DNA of 35,089 nt from an uncultured Muribaculaceae bacterium. GTDB taxonomy: Bacteria; Bacillota_I; Bacilli_A; RF39; UBA660. A program made the position numbers and the translations under genes. Below the pieces are notes generated by a model, which was not told where the DNA came from, made no database searches, and saw nothing but the letters and a program-made list of their open reading frames with translations. The first letter of the stretch is position 1. The number at the start of each line of letters is the position of its first letter. This document shows positions 2 through 14,190 of this stretch, piece by piece. Location of the stretch: positions 1 through 35,089 of the forward strand of contig CAZKKM010000002.1 in the NCBI GenBank assembly GCA_964553435.1. Direction: 5' to 3'.

Positions 2-1339
2 GAATACGACTCTTCCATCGAAGAGTATGCCAGCTACATAAATAGTTTAGGGCTTTCCGATCTCGAAGTGATAACCAAAGTCATGATCGATATTTGGGCA
101 AATATCTACGGTTATAATGGCAAAGTCGAAGGGTATAGTAACGACATAAACTACAGCCGCCTCGCCATTTACACTTATGGATATGGTGTCTGTAGACACT
201 TGGCTGACGATTTTACAGCACGCATGAATGCGATAAACCCGGAATATAAAGCTTTCAATATGTGTGTTTATATGCAAGACAGCTTTGAACTATCCAATAT
301 AGATCGTTTTTGGTTTCCTAAAGATCTTCCAAATGAAGAAGCAGATTTAGGTTTACCCAAACCAGTCAGAGAATTTATCAAAAGCAAAATTGGAAATCAT
401 ATGGTCACGTGCTTGACCATTCCGAATACGGACATTCATCTCGTAGTCGATGTGACTAATCCTTCTATTGGAGTTTTAAAAAACGGTCATATCGTCATGC
501 TCACAGAAAAAGATGTCGATCCTCTAGTGCCTATGCACGATTCGAACATTGGATACAAATGGAAAAATAAAGAAGAACTGCTGAGATATCTGGAATATTA
601 CTTGCAAAGTTTCTTATATTCACAAGATCTCGTTAAGTTAAAAGAAAAATACGGTACTTCTGCTCAAAATGAAGCGATAAAAAAAGTCTCTGTATACGGC
701 ACGTCGACCTATAAAATCGATCCTATCAACACCGATGAAACTCCGTTCAAAGGCAAATCACCTCTTTACTACGATGGCTACTGCCTCACCATTGATGACA
801 ATACTATCGAACTCTATAAAACGAACCTAACTGATGTAAAACCTCTCGAAGAAGTCTCCTACCGCGCGATAAATAACTTTTTAAGACGTCATCCTGAAGC
901 CACGAGAATTTTCATCAGTTACGATGATGATACGATAGATTTTTCTCAAATAGACTTCTCTGTACTGGATAATATCGAATATTTTAAAATTACCTGTACG
1001 AGTAGTAAAACCTCGGACAAAGTATTAAAATTAACCGGATCTATAGATAAACTTCTCGTTACATTCGATTCGCAAAAGACTGCCGAGGTAGGGCAGATTG
1101 CCGTTAGAGCTGATAATACTCGCGAGATGACCATAATACTCGCCAACGGCACCAAGTCTGAAAATATAGCCATCGAAGCCAACGACAATGCCGACTCCAT
1201 AACTATCAGTACAAAAGACAAAACAGACTATACCATCGACCGCCACTCGAAACAGGTAAAGATCATCTATTCCGTAGAGGGCAGAGTGATTGTCGAAGAA
1301 CTATCGTACGAAAAGCATCTCCAGAAAGTTTTAAATTAA
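2..1339 (+). CDS. Transglutaminase-like cysteine-protease-domain protein, 5'-partial (continues upstream of the window)
   Basis: Frame 2 has no stop from nt 2 to the GTG at 68, so the ORF runs off the left edge. Cys/His/Asp arrangement resembles a transglutaminase-like core: 'YGYGVCRHLADDF', then 'GNHMVTCL', then 'LVVDVTNP' 17 residues after the His. The C-terminal ~290 aa are unrecognised. Confidence 0.5.
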   Translation, partial: EYDSSIEEYASYINSLGLSDLEVITKVMIDIWANIYGYNGKVEGYSNDINYSRLAIYTYGYGVCRHLADDFTARMNAINPEYKAFNMCVYMQDSFELSNIDRFWFPKDLPNEEADLGLPKPVREFIKSKIGNHMVTCLTIPNTDIHLVVDVTNPSIGVLKNGHIVMLTEKDVDPLVPMHDSNIGYKWKNKEELLRYLEYYLQSFLYSQDLVKLKEKYGTSAQNEAIKKVSVYGTSTYKIDPINTDETPFKGKSPLYYDGYCLTIDDNTIELYKTNLTDVKPLEEVSYRAINNFLRRHPEATRIFISYDDDTIDFSQIDFSVLDNIEYFKITCTSSKTSDKVLKLTGSIDKLLVTFDSQKTAEVGQIAVRADNTREMTIILANGTKSENIAIEANDNADSITISTKDKTDYTIDRHSKQVKIIYSVEGRVIVEELSYEKHLQKVLN

Positions 1340-6837: not shown

Positions 6838-7881
6838 GTGAAAAAAGAAACACAAAAAACTACAAACAAAGATAAAACATTGGAAGAAGTGATGGCTCAA
6901 ATTGAAAAACAATTCGGCAAAGGTGCCATCATGAAGTTGGGTAGCGAAGAACATATTCAAATCGAAACGACACCGTCTGGTTCACTTGCTCTCGACATAG
7001 CTCTAGGGGTGGGAGGATATCCGAAAGGCCGCATTATCGAAATATTTGGCCCCGAGTCGAGTGGTAAGACGACTTTTGCTCTCGAAGCTATAGCTGCTTG
7101 CCAAAGAGAAGGAGGACGTGCGGCATTTATCGATGCTGAGCATGCTCTCGATCCGGTATACAGTAAAAACCTAGGTGTAGATATCGACGAATTGCTGCTC
7201 AGTCAACCGGACACAGGAGAACAAGCTTTGGAAATAGTCGATGCTCTTGTCAAAAGTGAGGCGGTAAACCTCATCGTCATCGACTCGGTCGCCGCTTTAG
7301 TGCCTCAAGCCGAAATCGAAGGTGAAATGGGTGATTCGCACGTCGGACTACAGGCTCGCCTCATGAGTCAAGCCTTGAGAAAACTTTCCGGCAACATCAA
7401 CAAAACGAATACGACAGCCATCTTCATCAATCAGCTTCGTGAAAAAGTCGGAGTCATGTTCGGCAACCCCGAAACCACACCGGGAGGCCGAGCACTCAAA
7501 TTCTATTCGTCTGTCCGTCTCGATATCAGAAAAGGAGAAGCTATCAAAAACGGCGATCAAATCATCGGTAGCAAAGCTAAAGTCAAAGTCGTCAAAAACA
7601 AAGTGGCCCCTCCATTTAAGAGCATAGAAGTCGATATCATGTACGGACTAGGTATCTCGCGCGAAGGCGAACTTTTGGACATCGCTTCCGATATCGACGT
7701 CGTCGAAAAGAGCGGAGCTTGGTATGCTTACAATGGCGAAAAAATCGGCCAAGGGAAAGAAAATGCTAAAATTTTCTTGAAAGAAAATCCTTCTGTTGCC
7801 GACGAAATCGAAGAAAAGATAAGAGCCCACTACGATATCGGTATGACGAAGAAAACTTCGGCCGATGAACAAAACGAATAA
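6838..7881 (+). CDS. recA: Recombinase RecA
   Basis: 347 aa with '[15 protein letters not shown]' Walker A, '[11 protein letters not shown]', 'IVIDSVAAL' and '[28 protein letters not shown]'. This is the unmistakable RecA core. GTG start with a strong SD. Confidence 0.97.
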
Positions 7882-7883
7882 TT

Positions 7884-7908
7884 ATAGAGAATTGTTCTCT
7901 ATTTTTTT
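7884..7908 (+). terminator. Rho-independent terminator after recA
   Basis: Stem ATAGAGAA / TTCTCTAT (7884-7891 / 7895-7902) with a 3-nt loop, followed by a T-run. Confidence 0.7.
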
Positions 7909-7930
7909 GGTTTTTTCGCAAACAAAATAA

Positions 7931-7959
7931 TTGACTATCACACACGTTTATGTTAATAT
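7931..7959 (+). promoter_or_regulatory. Putative sigma-A-type promoter of the paralog triplet (TTGACT-17-TAATAT)
   Basis: TTGACT at 7931-7936, a 17-nt spacer, TAATAT at 7954-7959. It lies ~27 nt upstream of the ATG at 7986, which has SD AAAGGGGA. Confidence 0.55.
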
Positions 7960-7985
7960 ATCTACTCAAAAAGGGGAAATTTATT

Positions 7986-9002
7986 ATGAAAAAAGAAATC
8001 ACAGACACGAGTTTAAATTTTTATCGCGAACACGGCATAAACGAATGGCATGAAAAATGCCAAATTTTGGCACCTGAAGAAAAGATGCAAATCGAATTAG
8101 ATTTGGCCAACGGAAAATCGAGTGAACTTCTGGCACTCGTACGAACACCGTTCCCTTTTTTCGTCACTCGCTACTTCGCTCGTTTCCCACATGTCAAAAG
8201 TTATTTTCACGATCCAACATTTGCTTATAAATTATATCTTCTCGATGACAGCACCATGCGTTTTTTTGCTGTGACTGCCCGATGCCCCGAAATTCGCGAC
8301 ATCGATCTTCGCAGAGAAAAACATTTCAACAAACCAAACGAGTATCGCGAACGCATCGCAGATCTTTGCTATAGACGATTCGAGGATATACCATACATGA
8401 ACAGTGTCGCTTCTAAATCCAAAAGACAACTGATAAAGTATGCTTATCTCACTCAATACATCGATCTCCAAGAAGCTCAAAGATTGAACCTCTCGGTCGC
8501 ACCGACATTTGCTTACTATGGCTGCGACGGCTATGAACTTAAGACCAAGCTATCGTTTCTAAATCCGGCCGTTCGCAAGATAATAGAATTGTATTTGGGG
8601 CTTTCTAACGACGAGCGCCATACTATGAAGCAAATTGCCGAAGAATTGGGCTTGTATCTTACTCAAGTGAGTTCCATTCTTTCTATACTCTTTCCAATTA
8701 TAACTAAACCTCTTCCTGTATTTAAGTCTCATCTTGGTATCGATAAAAATTTAGAAGCCGACGGCAACATGTTCTTCTATGGAAACACTTCGTTCCAGGC
8801 CCTCGATTTCGAACTAGAATTAGCTTACATTTTCCATCAATTGCCTGCGCCTCAACGTGAATTTCTTCTTACAACTTTAGATCAAAAAACTCTAAAAGAA
8901 TATCTAGCTGCTAAATATGTGTACAAAACTCCTATCGCCTTTGCGCGTGCTTTCAATATAAATGCCGACGAAGCAGCCGAAAAGATATTACATCTTAAAT
9001 AA
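7986..9002 (+). CDS. Hypothetical protein, paralog A of the tandem triplet; sigma-70-like layout with region-4-like HTH (tentative)
   Basis: 338 aa from the ATG at 7986 (SD AAAGGGGA); the ORF-track start at 7950 lies inside the predicted promoter. Shares collinear blocks with the next two ORFs: 'EW.EK', 'PFP.FV..YF', 'SYF.DP.FAYK.Y.L', 'KYAYLTQYID..EA.RLNL', 'LNPAVRKIIELYLGLSNDERHTMKQIAEELGL'. Confidence 0.55.
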   Translation: MKKEITDTSLNFYREHGINEWHEKCQILAPEEKMQIELDLANGKSSELLALVRTPFPFFVTRYFARFPHVKSYFHDPTFAYKLYLLDDSTMRFFAVTARCPEIRDIDLRREKHFNKPNEYRERIADLCYRRFEDIPYMNSVASKSKRQLIKYAYLTQYIDLQEAQRLNLSVAPTFAYYGCDGYELKTKLSFLNPAVRKIIELYLGLSNDERHTMKQIAEELGLYLTQVSSILSILFPIITKPLPVFKSHLGIDKNLEADGNMFFYGNTSFQALDFELELAYIFHQLPAPQREFLLTTLDQKTLKEYLAAKYVYKTPIAFARAFNINADEAAEKILHLK

Positions 9003-9017
9003 CAGGAGAATTTCATC

Positions 9018-10019
9018 ATGATAACTGAAGAAGAAGAATTTAACTTATTCATGTATCGGCAACTAGGAATTGCCGAATGGAGAGAAAAGAAATCGATTCT
9101 TTCAAAAGAAGAAGTGACAGAAATTTTAAAAGCCATAAAAGCTGGGATTTCTAACGACCTTATCGATTTAGTAAAACTTCCTTTCCCAAAATTTGTCGAA
9201 GCATATTTTTCTTCCATTCCATCCGCCCAGAAGTCTTATTTCGTCGATCCTCAATTTGCCTATAAAATGTATTTTTTAAATGACTATACTCTGCAAATGT
9301 TCTGCGAAACTCTGAGACATCCCGAATATTCCGTAAAAAAACTCGCTCAGGCATTAGAATTGAAAACAAGCTACCGCTTTAGTGACAAAATAAAATCGTT
9401 GATCGACACTAAACTGGAAGATTTTTCTAAAATGGCGAGCTTTAAAAATCGCAAACACAATTATCGAACAAAGTACATCTATCTTACACAATATATAGAT
9501 ATAGATGAGGCTCGTCGTTTGAATTTGCCTGCTGTCTTGCGTTTTATTGGATGTCAAGTCGAAAACTTCGACTTAGAAGGTAAACTGAGACTCTTGAATC
9601 CGACTGTAGAAAAAATAGTTATTTTCTATTTCGGCTTGCACGGATATTATAGACATAGCATGGAAGATATTTGCCGTTTGATGAATTTTTCTTACAGAAC
9701 CGTTTGCGAGAATTTGGAAAATATATTGGATTTTTTCCTTCATAATCTCGAAAAAACACTGCCTGAATTTGCCATTGCCATAGGCTACGATGGAACTTTG
9801 CCAAACGGAATGAAAAGATACCGCAACGAAAAATTCGCAAACCTGGATGCATATTTCACAACGAAAGCGATTTTCAACACATTGCCTGAAGAAGAGCAAC
9901 AATTTTTAGAAAAACTTCCGTTCTATGCTATTCGCTCTTACATAGAGGATAGATACTTGTTTACTACCGTAACCCAATCTCAGCAAGAAGAAACTGAAGG
10001 TGCAAAAAACATCGATTAA
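9018..10019 (+). CDS. Hypothetical protein, paralog B of the tandem triplet; sigma-70-like layout (tentative)
   Basis: 333 aa. SD AGGAGA sits 8 nt before the ATG, 15 nt after the stop of paralog A. Same conserved blocks: 'MYRQLGIAEWREKKSILSKEEVTEILKAIKAG', 'LPFPKFVEAYF', 'FAYKMYFLN', 'KYIYLTQYIDIDEARRLNL', 'LNPTVEKIVIFYFGL'. Confidence 0.55.
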   Translation: MITEEEEFNLFMYRQLGIAEWREKKSILSKEEVTEILKAIKAGISNDLIDLVKLPFPKFVEAYFSSIPSAQKSYFVDPQFAYKMYFLNDYTLQMFCETLRHPEYSVKKLAQALELKTSYRFSDKIKSLIDTKLEDFSKMASFKNRKHNYRTKYIYLTQYIDIDEARRLNLPAVLRFIGCQVENFDLEGKLRLLNPTVEKIVIFYFGLHGYYRHSMEDICRLMNFSYRTVCENLENILDFFLHNLEKTLPEFAIAIGYDGTLPNGMKRYRNEKFANLDAYFTTKAIFNTLPEEEQQFLEKLPFYAIRSYIEDRYLFTTVTQSQQEETEGAKNID

Positions 10020-10048
10020 AATAAATATTAAAAATGGAAGTGATTATC

Positions 10049-11140
10049 ATGACTGAAATTTCATATCTCGAAAGTGCACATTTGTACGAGCATCACCGAA
10101 TAGCCGAATGGCCCGAAAAATGTTGTGTTTTGACTCCACAAGAACGCGACACAGTTCTTAGAGAAGTGAAAGAGGGAAAGAAAACACCACTAGTCGAAAT
10201 GGTTTCTTTGCCGTTTCCAGCCTTTGTTACCGTTTACTTCGAGAACATACCCCAAAGTCGAAGTTACTTTGAAGACCCATCTTTTGCCTATAAAATGTAT
10301 TTTTTAAATCCCAGCGAACTTCGTTATTTTACTGAAAAAATGCGTACACCAAAACGCCGAAGCAGTGAAATAATAGCAGAATATGCTCTACCATCACGTG
10401 TGTCTTCGAAATCACAATTGCCGATTATTCTCGAAACGAAACTTGAAAATATTCCCAAAATAAGAAGTGCAAATAATGCCAGCCGAATGCGAGAAGCAAA
10501 ATATGCCTATCTCACTCAATACATCGATCGCTCGGAAGCCGCGCGGTTACATATCCCGATAGCTGAAACTTTTGTTCGAGATGATGTCGACGGCTATGGT
10601 CTCGAAGAGAAGATGAGCATGTTAAATCCAGTCGCTCGAGCTATGATGGCACTTTATATCGGCCTTTATGGTCTTCCCCGCTTATCAAAAATAGAAATAT
10701 GCAAAAAGTTAGGCTTGCGTTTCGATTCCGACGGCATCTTCCGTATGAACGATGTCCTTGATCGCGTCATCGACAATTTTTTTCCGTTTTTCTTCAAAAC
10801 TGCCGGAGAATTTAAAAACTATTTGGGCTATGATGAAAACCGACAAATTAAGGGAAATATGATAGAATACTCATCCCAACTTGTTCGTGATCTCGATATC
10901 GAACTAGAAACACGTTTCATCATGACCCATTTATCTATCGAAACTAAAAAAGTTTTAGCTCAATATACGGCTAACGAACGCAGAATCTATGTTGCAGCTA
11001 AATATATGTTCAAAACACCAGAATCGCTTGCTCGCAACATTGTCGTTTCAAAATATCTTGCTAAAAAAATAATCGAATATTCTTCCGAAGAACCAGAAAA
11101 AGTTCTTTCCTTGATAAACAGGAATTCTATGGGTAAATAG
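10049..11140 (+). CDS. Hypothetical protein, paralog C of the tandem triplet; sigma-70-like layout (tentative)
   Basis: 363 aa from the ATG at 10049 (SD GGAAGTGA). This start puts the conserved Trp at residue 21 in all three paralogs; the ORF-track start is 10034. Blocks: 'LPFPAFVTVYF', 'FAYKMYFLN', 'KYAYLTQYIDRSEAARLHI', 'LNPVARAMMALYIGLYGLPRLSKIEICKKLGL'. Confidence 0.55.
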   Translation: MTEISYLESAHLYEHHRIAEWPEKCCVLTPQERDTVLREVKEGKKTPLVEMVSLPFPAFVTVYFENIPQSRSYFEDPSFAYKMYFLNPSELRYFTEKMRTPKRRSSEIIAEYALPSRVSSKSQLPIILETKLENIPKIRSANNASRMREAKYAYLTQYIDRSEAARLHIPIAETFVRDDVDGYGLEEKMSMLNPVARAMMALYIGLYGLPRLSKIEICKKLGLRFDSDGIFRMNDVLDRVIDNFFPFFFKTAGEFKNYLGYDENRQIKGNMIEYSSQLVRDLDIELETRFIMTHLSIETKKVLAQYTANERRIYVAAKYMFKTPESLARNIVVSKYLAKKIIEYSSEEPEKVLSLINRNSMGK

Positions 11141-11171: not shown

Positions 11172-11200
11172 TTGTAAAAACTGAAGAGAAATCGTATAAT
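11172..11200 (+). promoter_or_regulatory. Putative sigma-A-type promoter of yebC (TTGTAA-17-TATAAT)
   Basis: TTGTAA at 11172-11177, a 17-nt spacer, TATAAT at 11195-11200. Confidence 0.5.
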
Positions 11201-11229
11201 TAAAAGGCAATGAAAAGGAAGTGAGTCCC

Positions 11230-11949
11230 ATGGGTAGGGCATTTGAAGTGAGAAAGGCGAGCATTCAAAAAAACGGAGCCGCTCGCGGTAAAATTTACAC
11301 GACTTTCGCCAAAGAAATCTATTTGGCTTGTAAAAAAGGTTCGCCGGATATCGAGGCGAACGTCGAATTGAAACGGATCGTCAACAAGGCCAAAAAACAA
11401 CAGGTGCCTAACGATATCATCGACAGAGCCATCGCAAAAGCTAAAGGAGCAGGGCAAGAAGACTATAAAGAAGTCGTATACGAAGGTTTCGGACCTGGAG
11501 CATCGACTCTCATCATAAAGACACTCACCGACAATGTCAACAGAACCGTAGGCGAAGTCCGCGCTGCTTTCAATAAAGTTCATAAAAGCCTCGGTGTTAC
11601 GAACTCAGTCACCTATAACTACGACCATCTGAGTATCGTCGGAGTCAAAAGCGATTTGGAGTCCGAACTTTTTGAAGCTCTTTTAGATGCCGGAATAGAA
11701 ATTCACGATTTAGAAAACGAAGATGGACTTCTCATCGTGACTTCGGACGCAAAGGATTCTTCTCGTGTCAAAGATGTCATCGACACCCTGATTCCGAACG
11801 CCGATTTGGAAATAGATGAAACGGGCATGTATGCCAAGGAAAAAATCACTCTCGAAGGTGAAGATCTCGAAGTATTCGACAAACTTTACAAGATGCTCGA
11901 CGACATCGACGATGTTTCGGAAATTTATACCAATGTCGAAATGAGCTGA
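11230..11949 (+). CDS. yebC: YebC/PmpR-family DNA-binding regulatory/translation-associated protein
   Basis: 'MGRAFEVRKASIQKNGAARGKIYTTFAKEIYLACKKGSPDIEANVELKRIVNKAKKQQVPNDIIDRAI' is the typical YebC N-terminus. ATG at 11230 preceded by AAGGAAGTGA; the ORF-track GTG is at 11221. Confidence 0.9.
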   Translation: MGRAFEVRKASIQKNGAARGKIYTTFAKEIYLACKKGSPDIEANVELKRIVNKAKKQQVPNDIIDRAIAKAKGAGQEDYKEVVYEGFGPGASTLIIKTLTDNVNRTVGEVRAAFNKVHKSLGVTNSVTYNYDHLSIVGVKSDLESELFEALLDAGIEIHDLENEDGLLIVTSDAKDSSRVKDVIDTLIPNADLEIDETGMYAKEKITLEGEDLEVFDKLYKMLDDIDDVSEIYTNVEMS

Positions 11950-12013
11950 AGGCTAAATCCTTTGCTTTTTAAAAGACTTTATTACAACTTTCGAACCTTT
12001 ATGGAGGTATATT

Positions 12014-12532
12014 ATGGATACAGAAAAACCAATTTTTAAAATTGTCCCTTTCGAAAAAATATTGTCATTAGAAAATTCCGAAGAAATAGCCTTGATTCTC
12101 ATAACACCAAAGCAAACACTTTGTGCATTGCCAGCGACCCCCGAAATCGACCGACACCAATATCTCGTCACAGCACTCGATAAAAATATATTCGATGAAA
12201 ACATACGATTCCCTGAATACAATTGCATCGAAATTCGACTTTGTTCCACCCAAAAATTTGCCCATATCTACACACCATGCCTAATAACATCTCGCGAATT
12301 CGAGGATTTGCGAACGATCATCTCGAGACTCTGTTCATCCGATATCGATGTCACAACTTTTTTGACCGACGTCGATCCCACGAAGATCGTCTCTAAAATG
12401 AAATACGTCGACGAATTCGACGGTCTTGCCATTCTCGACTATTTCACAAAATCGAAAAAAATCGTCGAATATGAATTGCCATTCGAAGAAAGAACGGGGC
12501 TAGATTTCGAAAAAGGAAATGTACAATTATGA
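12014..12532 (+). CDS. Hypothetical protein (172 aa), no recognisable motifs
   Basis: Long ORF with SD GGAGGT before the ATG, coding-like composition, and five Cys. No family recognised. Confidence 0.55.
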   Translation: MDTEKPIFKIVPFEKILSLENSEEIALILITPKQTLCALPATPEIDRHQYLVTALDKNIFDENIRFPEYNCIEIRLCSTQKFAHIYTPCLITSREFEDLRTIISRLCSSDIDVTTFLTDVDPTKIVSKMKYVDEFDGLAILDYFTKSKKIVEYELPFEERTGLDFEKGNVQL

Positions 12533-12551
12533 GGAAAATATCCTCTTTTTC
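12531..12551 (+). terminator. Weak rho-independent terminator
   Basis: 5-bp stem GAGGA / TCCTC with a 5-nt loop, followed by TTTTTCTTT. Overlaps the stop codon of the 172-aa ORF. Confidence 0.4.
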
Positions 12552-12557
12552 TTTGAC

Positions 12558-12586
12558 TTGATTTATAGAACAAAATACATTATAAT
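12558..12586 (+). promoter_or_regulatory. Putative sigma-A-type promoter of rny (TTGATT-17-TATAAT)
   Basis: TTGATT at 12558-12563, a 17-nt spacer, TATAAT at 12581-12586. Confidence 0.4.
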
Positions 12587-12636
12587 TGAGGTGTAGATGC
12601 CCGAGAGCACTCTACAAATAGAAAGTGAAGGAAACT

Positions 12637-14190
12637 ATGGAAATTACTATGATATCCATCTTGTTTCTTATCATTGGATTGATCATCGGAGTAGGAGTGG
12701 CAATTGCCATCGTTCTATTCACAGGATTGGGCGCCGGCAAGAAAGCTGACGCGATAATTGCCTCCGCTAAAAAGGAAGCGGATAAGCACAAAAGAGATAC
12801 TCTTTTAGAATTGAAAGAGGAATCACACAAGTTGAAGTTAGAAACGGACAAAGAGATTAAAGAAAGAAAAAGTGAACTCTTGAACACTGAAAACCGCTTG
12901 TTAGAACGCGAGAAATCGTTGGATAAAAGGGAAGAACTCCTCCAAAACCGCGACAATGCTCTCGAGGAGAAGAACAACAACTTAAACTTGATGCAAAGTA
13001 AAATCCAAGAAAAAGAAACGAAGATGGATGAACTTTTGAAAAGCGAAATGGAGAAACTCGAAAACATATCCAAATTCTCTAAAGAAAAAGCTCGCAGTCT
13101 CATCATCGAACGTGTCGAAAGTGATATGGCTAAAGAAATATCGGAAATGATAAAAGAACGCGAACAAGAGGCTAAACTCGAAGCAGATAAAAAAGCCAAA
13201 GATTTGCTCGTCGAATCGATGCAAAAATACTCGAACGACGTGGCTACCGAGCAGACAGTTTCGACAATAACTTTGCCATCAGATGACATGAAAGGACGTC
13301 TAATCGGTCGAGAAGGACGTAACATCAGAACGATCGAATCGGTCACTGGTGTCGATCTCATCATCGATGATACCCCAGAAACCATAGTCATATCTTCGTT
13401 CGATCCATACCGAAGAGAGATCGCACGTATGACGATAGAAACACTGATAAAAGATGGACGAATTCATCCCGCACGCATCGAAGAAGTATATGATAAAATA
13501 TGTAAGGATATGAAAGCACGCATCCTATCGCTCGGGGCCGATGCTATTCAAGAATTGGGACTTGCGAAGTTCGACCCAGAATTAGTCGCCTTGATTGGAC
13601 GTTTACATTTCCGTACCAGTTTCGGTCAAAATGCTTTACAACATTCGATTGAGGTGGCACGTCTAACAGGCCTCATGGCTGGAGAGTTAGGAGAAAATGT
13701 AAATTTTGCCAAACGAGCTGGATTACTACACGACATCGGTAAATCGATCGATTTCGAAATAGAAGGAAGCCATGTCGAAATAGGTGCAAATATAGCCAAA
13801 AAATTCCACGAATCCGAAATAGTTTTGAATTCCATCATGTCTCACCATGGCGATTGTGAACCGACTAGCATAATCGCTTGGCTAGTCCAAATCGCGGACA
13901 CTCTAAGTGCGGCGAGACCTGGTGCGAGAAACGATTCTTTCGATAATTACATCCAAAGACTCGAAAACCTTGAAGCCATTGGAAACGGCATGGAAGGAGT
14001 AGACAAATCGTATGCCCTACAAGCCGGTCGCGAACTCCGCGTCATGGTCAAACCTGATGAAGTGGACGACCTTGCCAGTTTCAAACTCGCACGAGATATT
14101 AAAGAAAAAATCGAATCCGAACTTCAATACCCGGGAACGATCAAAATTACGGTCATTCGCGAGACTCGTGCTCAAGAAGAGGCCAAATAG
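12637..14190 (+). CDS. rny: Ribonuclease Y
   Basis: N-terminal TM helix, a long Lys/Glu coiled coil, a KH domain ('GRLIGREGRNIRTIESVTGVDLIIDD') and an HD domain ('LLHDIGKS', 'SHHG'). Start at ATG 12637 or GTG 12625. Confidence 0.93.
   Translation: MEITMISILFLIIGLIIGVGVAIAIVLFTGLGAGKKADAIIASAKKEADKHKRDTLLELKEESHKLKLETDKEIKERKSELLNTENRLLEREKSLDKREELLQNRDNALEEKNNNLNLMQSKIQEKETKMDELLKSEMEKLENISKFSKEKARSLIIERVESDMAKEISEMIKEREQEAKLEADKKAKDLLVESMQKYSNDVATEQTVSTITLPSDDMKGRLIGREGRNIRTIESVTGVDLIIDDTPETIVISSFDPYRREIARMTIETLIKDGRIHPARIEEVYDKICKDMKARILSLGADAIQELGLAKFDPELVALIGRLHFRTSFGQNALQHSIEVARLTGLMAGELGENVNFAKRAGLLHDIGKSIDFEIEGSHVEIGANIAKKFHESEIVLNSIMSHHGDCEPTSIIAWLVQIADTLSAARPGARNDSFDNYIQRLENLEAIGNGMEGVDKSYALQAGRELRVMVKPDEVDDLASFKLARDIKEKIESELQYPGTIKITVIRETRAQEEAK

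Follow-up and report, generated by a model that had tools for sequence, protein, structure and literature searches.

Between recA and yebC, the stretch of DNA analysed here (positions 1 to 35,089 of contig CAZKKM010000002.1, assembly GCA_964553435.1; hereafter the window) carries three tandem genes, designated paralogs A, B and C, whose products are members of an undescribed, unnamed and rare protein family that is confined to a narrow lineage. In these proteins, residues ~181-245 are, as judged by sequence comparison, homologous to region 4 of sigma-70 factors (sigma4), and this is the sole robust homology of the family. A, B and C are nevertheless not canonical sigma factors. The explanation that we favour, with about even confidence, is that they represent a new family of regulators with a sigma4-type helix-turn-helix (HTH) domain, which would be related to transcription and would probably act as a hetero-oligomer.

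The homology to sigma4 was recovered by profile as well as by structure comparison. When columns 181-245 of the family alignment were compared by hhalign with sigma4 of SigH-like sigma factors, a probability of 97.8% and an E-value (E) of 8.5e-13 were obtained. Similarly, a profile of 60 family members matched region 4 of SigA (E 0.0019) and of RpoS in the Protein Data Bank (PDB), with the family pattern LxxLNPxxRxIxxxYLGLxGxxxxSxxEI aligned to LxxLSxRERxVLxLRYGLxDGxxxTLEEI. By Foldseek, the AlphaFold2 model of B could be placed on isolated SigA region 4 with TMt values of 0.67-0.68 and a root-mean-square deviation (rmsd) of 2.3-3.0 Å (6onu_H: TMt 0.68, rmsd 2.3). Matches at the level of single proteins were also observed, since residues 192-232 of A matched the Pfam model Sigma70_r4 at a sub-threshold E of 3.4e-4, along with the NCBIfam models of SigK, SigE and RpoD region 4; among the 60 family members, Sigma70_r4 was matched at E ≤ 0.01 by four. 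Furthermore, an exhaustive hidden Markov model (HMM) search with the family also picked up proteins that combine Sigma70_r2 and Sigma70_r4, solely via the sigma4 segment. The segment spans helices 4.1-4.2 and includes YLGLxG, a loop characteristic of SigH-like/group-3 sigmas.

In comparison with region 4 of sigma-70 factors themselves (PF04545 Sigma70_r4; SigH-like/group-3 and group-1 sigmas), the family shares the 4.1 helix, the (R/L)Y(F/L)GLxG loop and the HTH. It differs in that the domain is internal and not C-terminal, with 180 residues that are neither sigma2 nor sigma3 before it and a domain of 70-90 amino acids (aa) after it, and in that the residues that read the -35 element (TRERIRQ) are not conserved. 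PDB matches of the C-terminal part to uL29 were weak (E > 0.01) and were judged to be due to chance. An earlier reading of the window, made from the sequence only, had proposed a putative transcription factor; this idea gains support from the homology of residues ~181-245 to sigma-70 region 4, but it does not extend to sigma factors, because neither sigma2 nor sigma3 was detectable.

The sigma2 domain (regions 2.1-2.4), a defining feature of sigma factors, makes contact with the beta-prime clamp helices and with the -10 element. In Pfam, Sigma70_r2 gave no match to A, B or C at E ≤ 1, and neither Sigma70_r2 nor Sigma70_r3 matched any of the 60 family members at E ≤ 0.01. For hhalign, sigma2 and sigma3 profiles were built from search hits, and the N-terminal, middle and C-terminal segments of the family were compared with them; probabilities reached at most 15%, and those of the N-terminal part against sigma2 profiles of 6 and 38 sequences (1.5-5%) were within the noise of the control. 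In this control the sigma3 template scored higher on wrong segments than on the expected one, and the weak sigma2/sigma3 P-values are therefore noise. Since the control showed such matches to be non-specific, an N-terminal 'LS.EE...G' resemblance to sigma region 1.2/2.1 was likewise discarded as evidence.

Structural comparison led to the same picture. The AlphaFold2 model of B was compact and all-alpha, with a predicted local distance difference test score (pLDDT) of 84.7 and a predicted template modelling score (pTM) of 0.78, and a separate model of residues 1-181 reached a pLDDT of 86.2 and a pTM of 0.83. A Foldseek search of the PDB with this N-terminal model retrieved no analogue and no sigma2, the top match being T4 lysozyme (E 1.8, template modelling score (TM) ≤ 0.23), and the helices of the model are short, unlike those of sigma2. 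Against Pfam, NCBIfam and PHROG, the N-terminal 180 aa gave matches at chance level only (SNF5, E 0.03; Lrs14, E 0.03), and nothing was returned for the N-terminal part by the PDB profile search. The idea that the N-terminus consists of degenerate sigma4 copies was rejected, as no internal repeats were found by hhalign. Because sigma2 was looked for and not found, A, B and C are not sigma factors by definition.

The alternative that survives best is that they are true but extremely divergent alternative sigma factors, in which the N-terminal half would be a degenerate sigma2 (or sigma2/sigma3) that binds core RNA polymerase (RNAP) and each paralog would serve a promoter class of its own. No match below E 0.3 was obtained when the full B model was compared with the PDB and BFVD, although full-length sigma factors topped the lists in both libraries (E 0.3-1.5, TM ~0.16) and were aligned over 280-340 columns; such model-based alignments were taken as a lead only, and not as evidence by themselves. 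Further points in favour are the N-terminal pattern 'LS.EE...L..lk.G....L', which stands in register with sigma region 1.2/2.1 (hhalign P 0.008-0.03), the collinearity of a sigma-A-like protein (P0151) with profile positions 91-245, and the fact that the nearest sigma4 relatives are SigH-like sigma factors. Set against these are the absence of Sigma70_r2 and Sigma70_r3 from all 60 members, the low sigma2 probabilities, shown by the control to be non-specific, the confidently modelled N-terminal half with its short helices and no sigma2 counterpart in the PDB, and the domain that follows sigma4, which is atypical. On balance, we consider this alternative unlikely.

The architecture of the family is thus described as an N-terminal half of ~180 aa that is all-helical, aromatic-rich and novel, a sigma4-type HTH of ~65 aa and an extra C-terminal domain of 70-90 aa. 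A, B and C align end to end and collinearly at 32-36% pairwise identity (35-36% for B and C versus A), with 77 invariant columns. This bears out the paralogy noted in the sequence-only reading, down to the shared Trp21, the invariance of each quoted sequence block and the count of 44 identities between B and C over the first 103 aligned columns, which was reproduced exactly. Conservation is concentrated in residues 12-90, in residues 152-170 (the block KYxYLTQYIDxxEAxRLGL) and in residues 183-212, which form the first half of the sigma4 domain, and variability is greatest in residues 91-140 and in the predicted recognition helix (222-245). Among the positions that are invariant or nearly so, aromatic and aliphatic residues prevail over a few charged ones, and no motif suggestive of catalysis occurs, which argues for a non-enzymatic character of the family.

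With regard to selection, comparison with a strain 98.8% identical to the window gave ratios of non-synonymous to synonymous polymorphism (pN/pS) of 0.48 for A, 0.32 for B and 0.27 for C, and of 0 for yebC, these values being derived from few substitutions. At the sequence level, the three genes appear constrained but fast-evolving, under purifying, relaxed selection. This purifying selection between strains, together with about 65 conserved relatives, indicates that A, B and C are real genes. A variant of paralog B (P0002, 293 aa, from a 1.1-kb ENA contig) lacks 40 internal residues (about 117-156) without loss of frame, so that little is left of the variable middle segment and the KYxYLTQYID block has lost its beginning; the deletion could be natural or could have arisen in assembly.

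The rarity of the family was evident in all collections searched. None of the models of Pfam, NCBIfam, PHROG and PADLOC was significant on A, B or C, and no PDB family covered any of them as a whole, sigma region 4 alone being matched in the PDB profile search. The statement of the sequence-only reading that they could not be assigned to any named family therefore holds after profile and structure searches, which found no characterised family covering the proteins beyond the sigma4 segment. A word-indexed search of 5.8 billion proteins yielded 8 relatives, and the exhaustive HMM search of 1.84 billion cluster representatives yielded 192 matches, about 65 of which are full-length family members of 300-390 aa; an alignment-based homologue search added almost nothing new. 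Family members of known origin all come from uncultured gut Bacilli/"Tenericutes" assemblies. In a survey of one genome per species (185,579 species), 7 loci were found, all in metagenome-assembled genomes (MAGs) titled uncultured Bacilli or Tenericutes, bar two titled Muribaculaceae, which seem to be mislabelled. No family relative was detected by tblastn among INPHARED phages and PLSDB plasmids or by a pattern scan of IMG/VR, and the JGI metagenomes gave none in a first scan and one partial member (L018, numbered as one of the relatives' loci that were fetched) in a second.

With regard to taxonomic labels, three of the fetched loci (L004, L007 and L010; CAYYLF010000026.1, CAZLNI010000101.1 and CAZLNI010000053.1) stem from MAGs titled 'uncultured Muribaculaceae' (Bacteroidota). 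In recA, yebC, rny and dnaB-like genes, these loci share 85-93% identity with the window and with MAGs titled uncultured Bacilli or Tenericutes. Judging from these identities, the Muribaculaceae label of the three loci is probably wrong, or the contigs are mis-binned.

The best matches outside the family were proteins with multiple sigma4 domains, each of whose repeats matches profile positions ~180-250, with a short lead-in helix included. They comprise one SigH-like Sigma70_r2 and 2-12 tandem Sigma70_r4 repeats, and they are long (about 260-1720 aa) and K/N-rich, with a low-GC-type composition similar to that of the family. This set, retrieved in the exhaustive search, comprises P0071, P0075-P0082 and P0084-P0156 (for example P0075 with 1722 aa and P0071 with 940 aa), and within it P0113, P0122, P0123, P0130 and P0149 are SigH-like sigma factors of ordinary length with one to three extra sigma4 units. 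In contrast to the family, many of these proteins have a recognisable sigma2 (38 sigma2 segments were recovered), and they have neither the N-terminal nor the C-terminal domain of the family. Neither the window nor any fetched locus encodes such a protein, and no description of multi-region-4 or similar proteins was found in the literature searched. A precedent for the splitting of sigma functions is SigO-RsoA (YvrI-YvrHa) of Bacillus subtilis, a two-subunit sigma factor encoded by adjacent genes, in which one subunit has region 4 without a canonical region 2 and its partner, with which it works as a heteromer, supplies a recognisable region 2. The paralogs of the family, compared here with that system by description only, differ from it in that they share one architecture, which lacks region 2.

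The layout of the array corresponds to that given in the sequence-only reading with respect to gene lengths, strand, flanking genes and the intergenic gaps of 15 nucleotides (nt; A-B) and 29 nt (B-C). Each of the open reading frames (ORFs) is preceded by a Shine-Dalgarno (SD)-like purine run, namely AAAGGGGA (7970-7977) before A, AGGAG (9004-9008) before B and GGAAGTGA (10036-10043) before C; the alternative ATG start of C at 10034 has no SD. The terminator that follows recA was confirmed as a weak AT-rich hairpin (RNA fold centroid -6.4 kcal/mol, z -1.8) with a T-run. The promoter behind it scored 9 of 12 in a pattern scan, plus the TG of an extended -10, and is unremarkable alone, so that the site itself stood but its description as near-consensus was generous. 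Nevertheless, the same succession of a recA terminator hairpin at the equivalent position, TTGACx-17-TGnTAnnAT and a AAAAAGGGG SD precedes homologous arrays in three other genomes (L001, L002 and L010), and the promoter and SD also lie 5' of the single-copy genes of the more distant loci L014 and L016. As this architecture is kept upstream in the loci of relatives, the site is, on sequence grounds, probably a real promoter.

No convincing terminator was found in the intergenic gaps of the array, as had been stated before. The sole candidate on the + strand within the array (8493-8505) has a 5-bp stem and a poor T tail, and no credible terminator was found between C and yebC. A promoter scan placed a promoter-like site of yebC's own at 11172-11200. 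The arrangement suggests that A, B and C form one promoter-led operon, which probably reads through into yebC. Coordinates are compiled in Table 1. Elsewhere in the window, a 423-aa ORF at 68-1339 (+) had no Pfam match at E ≤ 0.001, and scans of the window with Rfam and for tRNAs gave no matches.

Table 1. Features of the array and its flanks in the window (i-E, independent E-value)
Feature	Position	Strand	Basis or remark
recA	6838-7881		upstream flank of the array
recA intrinsic terminator	7884-7909	+	hairpin ATAGAGAA-TTG-TTCTCTAT, then T-run
Probable sigma-A-type promoter	7931-7959	+	TTGACT-17-(TG)TTAATAT, extended -10
Paralog A	7986-9002	+	ORF, 338 aa; first-position copy
Sigma-70 region-4-like HTH domain of A	8523-8702	+	family sigma4 HMM, i-E 1.9e-22
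Paralog B	9018-10019	+	ORF, 333 aa
Sigma-70 region-4-like HTH domain of B	9561-9749	+	hhalign of family columns 181-245; PDB profile; Foldseek
Paralog C	10049-11140	+	ORF, 363 aa; alternative start 10034
Sigma-70 region-4-like HTH domain of C	10589-10795	+	family sigma4 HMM, i-E 1.6e-21
yebC (TACO1/YebC family)	11221-11949	+	Pfam E 2.9e-37
Hypothetical gene, 172 aa	12014-12532		between yebC and rny; no Pfam match
rny	12625-14190		downstream flank

Comparison of the window with the fetched loci, in which adjacency was counted where neighbouring sequence was present, revealed a conserved order in the clade of the window, with murT/gatD (divergent) followed by recA, the family array, yebC, variable genes, rny and dnaB/dnaI. 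The copy number ranges from one to four (four in L001, three in the window, two in L002 and L008, and one in a divergent clade represented by L014, L015, L016 and L018). Copies cluster by position, A with the first-position copies of L001 and L002, B with copies 2 and 4 of L001, and C with the last copy of L007 (49% identity) and copy 3 of L001. From this clustering it follows that the duplications are older than the species compared. Of the lineage-specific expansion proposed before, the confinement to a narrow lineage was thus borne out, but the expansion is neither recent nor specific to one genome. The positional orthologs are 34-49% identical, as against 80-93% for recA, yebC and rny and 53-66% for MurT/GatD.

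Family units may also occur within one polypeptide. In L008 (8132-10195), two units are fused in a single ORF of 687 aa with no stop between them, and the double-length representatives P0009 (644 aa) and P0016 (602 aa) match the profile at more than one stretch. By the gene-fusion argument, this suggests that the paralogs act together. A further representative, P0045 (565 aa), consists of one family unit and an unrelated C-terminal extension of about 240 aa.

In the clade of the window, recA lies directly upstream of the array in all loci with an upstream flank, that is, in the window itself and in L001/L004, L002/L003/L005, L006, L008, L009 and L010. The recA-adjacent location emphasised in the sequence-only reading is therefore a property of this clade and does not hold for the divergent one. 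There, the single copy lies behind its own TTGACA/extended -10 promoter (L014, L016) and directly downstream of yebC in the two loci where this flank is present (L015, L016), and the gene upstream of yebC in L016 is YbbR-like, not recA. Hence, yebC adjoins family genes in all fetched loci that have neighbouring sequence, and adjacency to yebC, not to recA, is the feature common to the whole family. As adjacency to recA holds in the window's clade only, the gene order indicates that this linkage is probably due to synteny by descent rather than to function.

Other parts of these neighbourhoods vary between the clades and within them. In the divergent clade, a conserved membrane protein of 156-163 aa (MK.FYKENRVF...) is encoded after the family gene, immediately next to it in L014 and L018 and separated from it by a 179-aa ORF in L016, and the next gene in L014 and L016 encodes a large GGDEF-domain protein (L014 1178-3690; L016 3001-5946; L018 742-1212). 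From this gene order, the membrane protein and GGDEF genes may constitute a second conserved neighbourhood of the family. Among genomes that are syntenic elsewhere, the interval from yebC to rny is hypervariable (window 11950-12624; L001 6838-10508; L002 12424-15966; L008 11517-16953). In L001 it encodes a HipA_C-domain protein and two paralogs of the window's 172-aa protein; in L002 the domain of the latter forms the C-terminus of a 660-aa protein, and L008 has a 1336-aa ORF.

On the regulator explanation favoured here, the sigma4-type HTH would bind DNA and/or the beta-flap of RNAP, and the N-terminal half together with the KYxYLTQYIDxxEAxRLGL block would provide the contact to a conserved partner or serve in assembly. 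The paralogs would work jointly as a hetero-oligomer, for which we rely on the grouping of copies by position across genomes and on the fused units, and the hypervariable predicted recognition helix would endow each copy with its own specificity, with expression driven from a promoter of housekeeping type that is conserved in relatives.

Several points weigh against this explanation. The functional assignment depends wholly on one domain of ~65 residues, and with respect to the Pfam model of that domain A reaches 20.5 bits, compared with a gathering threshold of 24.1 bits for Sigma70_r4, while B and C have no match. The predicted recognition helix is hydrophobic or neutral and not basic (median net charge 0). 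Moreover, the high pTM of the B model points to a compact protein whose HTH may lie against other domains and may have a structural use, so that DNA binding is not assured. Finally, the fused ORFs could be artefacts of assembly or frameshift, that of L008 alone having been inspected at the DNA level. Even so, the divergent sigma factors weighed above and the four alternatives that follow are all less likely than a sigma4-HTH regulator family.

Some of the features just mentioned would also fit sigma4 decoys or RNAP modulators, whose domain would sit on the beta-flap tip, or mimic region 4, without recognising the -35 element, and would thereby shift transcription to extended -10 promoters that do not depend on a -35 element or block certain sigma factors. 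The 4.1 helix and the YLGLxG loop are conserved, but the DNA-reading helix is neither conserved nor basic, sigma2 was not detected, and the family's own promoters all carry a TG extended -10. However, low-GC Bacillota commonly have extended -10 promoters, which makes their occurrence here non-specific, and the case is purely inferential. The fast divergence of positional orthologs would also be unexpected for proteins docking on the conserved RNAP, though the conserved blocks could serve for that. We regard such a role as rather improbable.

The constant neighbourhood raises a further alternative, in which the family proteins would be partners of YebC or would take part in the same process, be it translation of difficult motifs or the older proposed regulatory role of YebC. 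Proteins of the YebC family are translation factors that act where ribosomes stall on proline-rich stretches (PMC11990639, PMC12234827). In both clades yebC is directly next to the family genes, although the gene order is reversed (family-yebC in the clade of the window, yebC-family in L015 and L016), and no terminator separates the family gene from it. Nevertheless, these are two independent arrangements only, so that the genes may have stayed adjacent by descent, the gap between C and yebC contains a candidate yebC promoter, and the family proteins have no feature that links them to ribosomes; the chance that this explanation is right appears small. As for the family proteins being polyproline clients of YebC, this was rejected, a PP dipeptide being present in only 3 of the 60.

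It is also very unlikely that the array is cargo of a defence island or mobile element, such as a toxin-antitoxin-like or anti-phage system evolving fast under conflict. Such a nature would account for the low identity of the orthologs next to flanks that are roughly 80-93% identical, the variable copy number, the relaxed pN/pS (0.27-0.48), and the neighbouring hypervariable yebC-rny interval with its HipA_C kinase in L001. By contrast, A, B and C had no PADLOC match at E ≤ 1, homologs were found neither in phages and plasmids nor in IMG/VR, no integrase or repeats flank the array, and its guanine-cytosine content is just slightly below that of the flanks. The array has also kept its place and synteny through speciation, and its copies show positional orthology.

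The last alternative, that of modulators of RecA or recombination like RecX, the helical-repeat RecA inhibitor (three tandem three-helix repeats) often encoded just downstream of recA, is hardly credible, since the likeness in recA-downstream position, seen in all window-clade loci with an upstream flank, and in an all-alpha fold of short helices is offset by the lack of sequence or fold similarity (no Pfam RecX match at E ≤ 1, no internal repeats by hhalign, no RecX among the Foldseek PDB matches), by the terminator and separate promoter between recA and the array, and by the divergent clade, in which recA is absent and a YbbR-like gene lies upstream of yebC.

Beyond a regulator family in the general sense, a more specific version can be formulated, to which we assign a low probability. 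It holds that the family is a class of sigma-derived, RNAP-associated specificity factors that kept region 4, in which sigma2 was replaced by a novel helical domain, and which are made up of two to four fast-diverging paralogous subunits, sometimes fused, and encoded with yebC. If this version were true, a clade of uncultured, Mollicutes-like gut Bacilli would have a promoter-selection system found nowhere else, which would be sigma-like, consist of several subunits and carry an N-terminal domain of a fold not seen before. The family belongs to the large class of uncharacterised protein families from MAGs, and its practical value is limited at present, as the hosts are uncultured and all that goes beyond the domain assignment is inferred. 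If the regulatory role holds, the family would add a new architecture, beside the multi-sigma4 proteins, to the ways in which bacteria reuse sigma domains, and would offer a handle on gene regulation in a lineage without a cultured representative.

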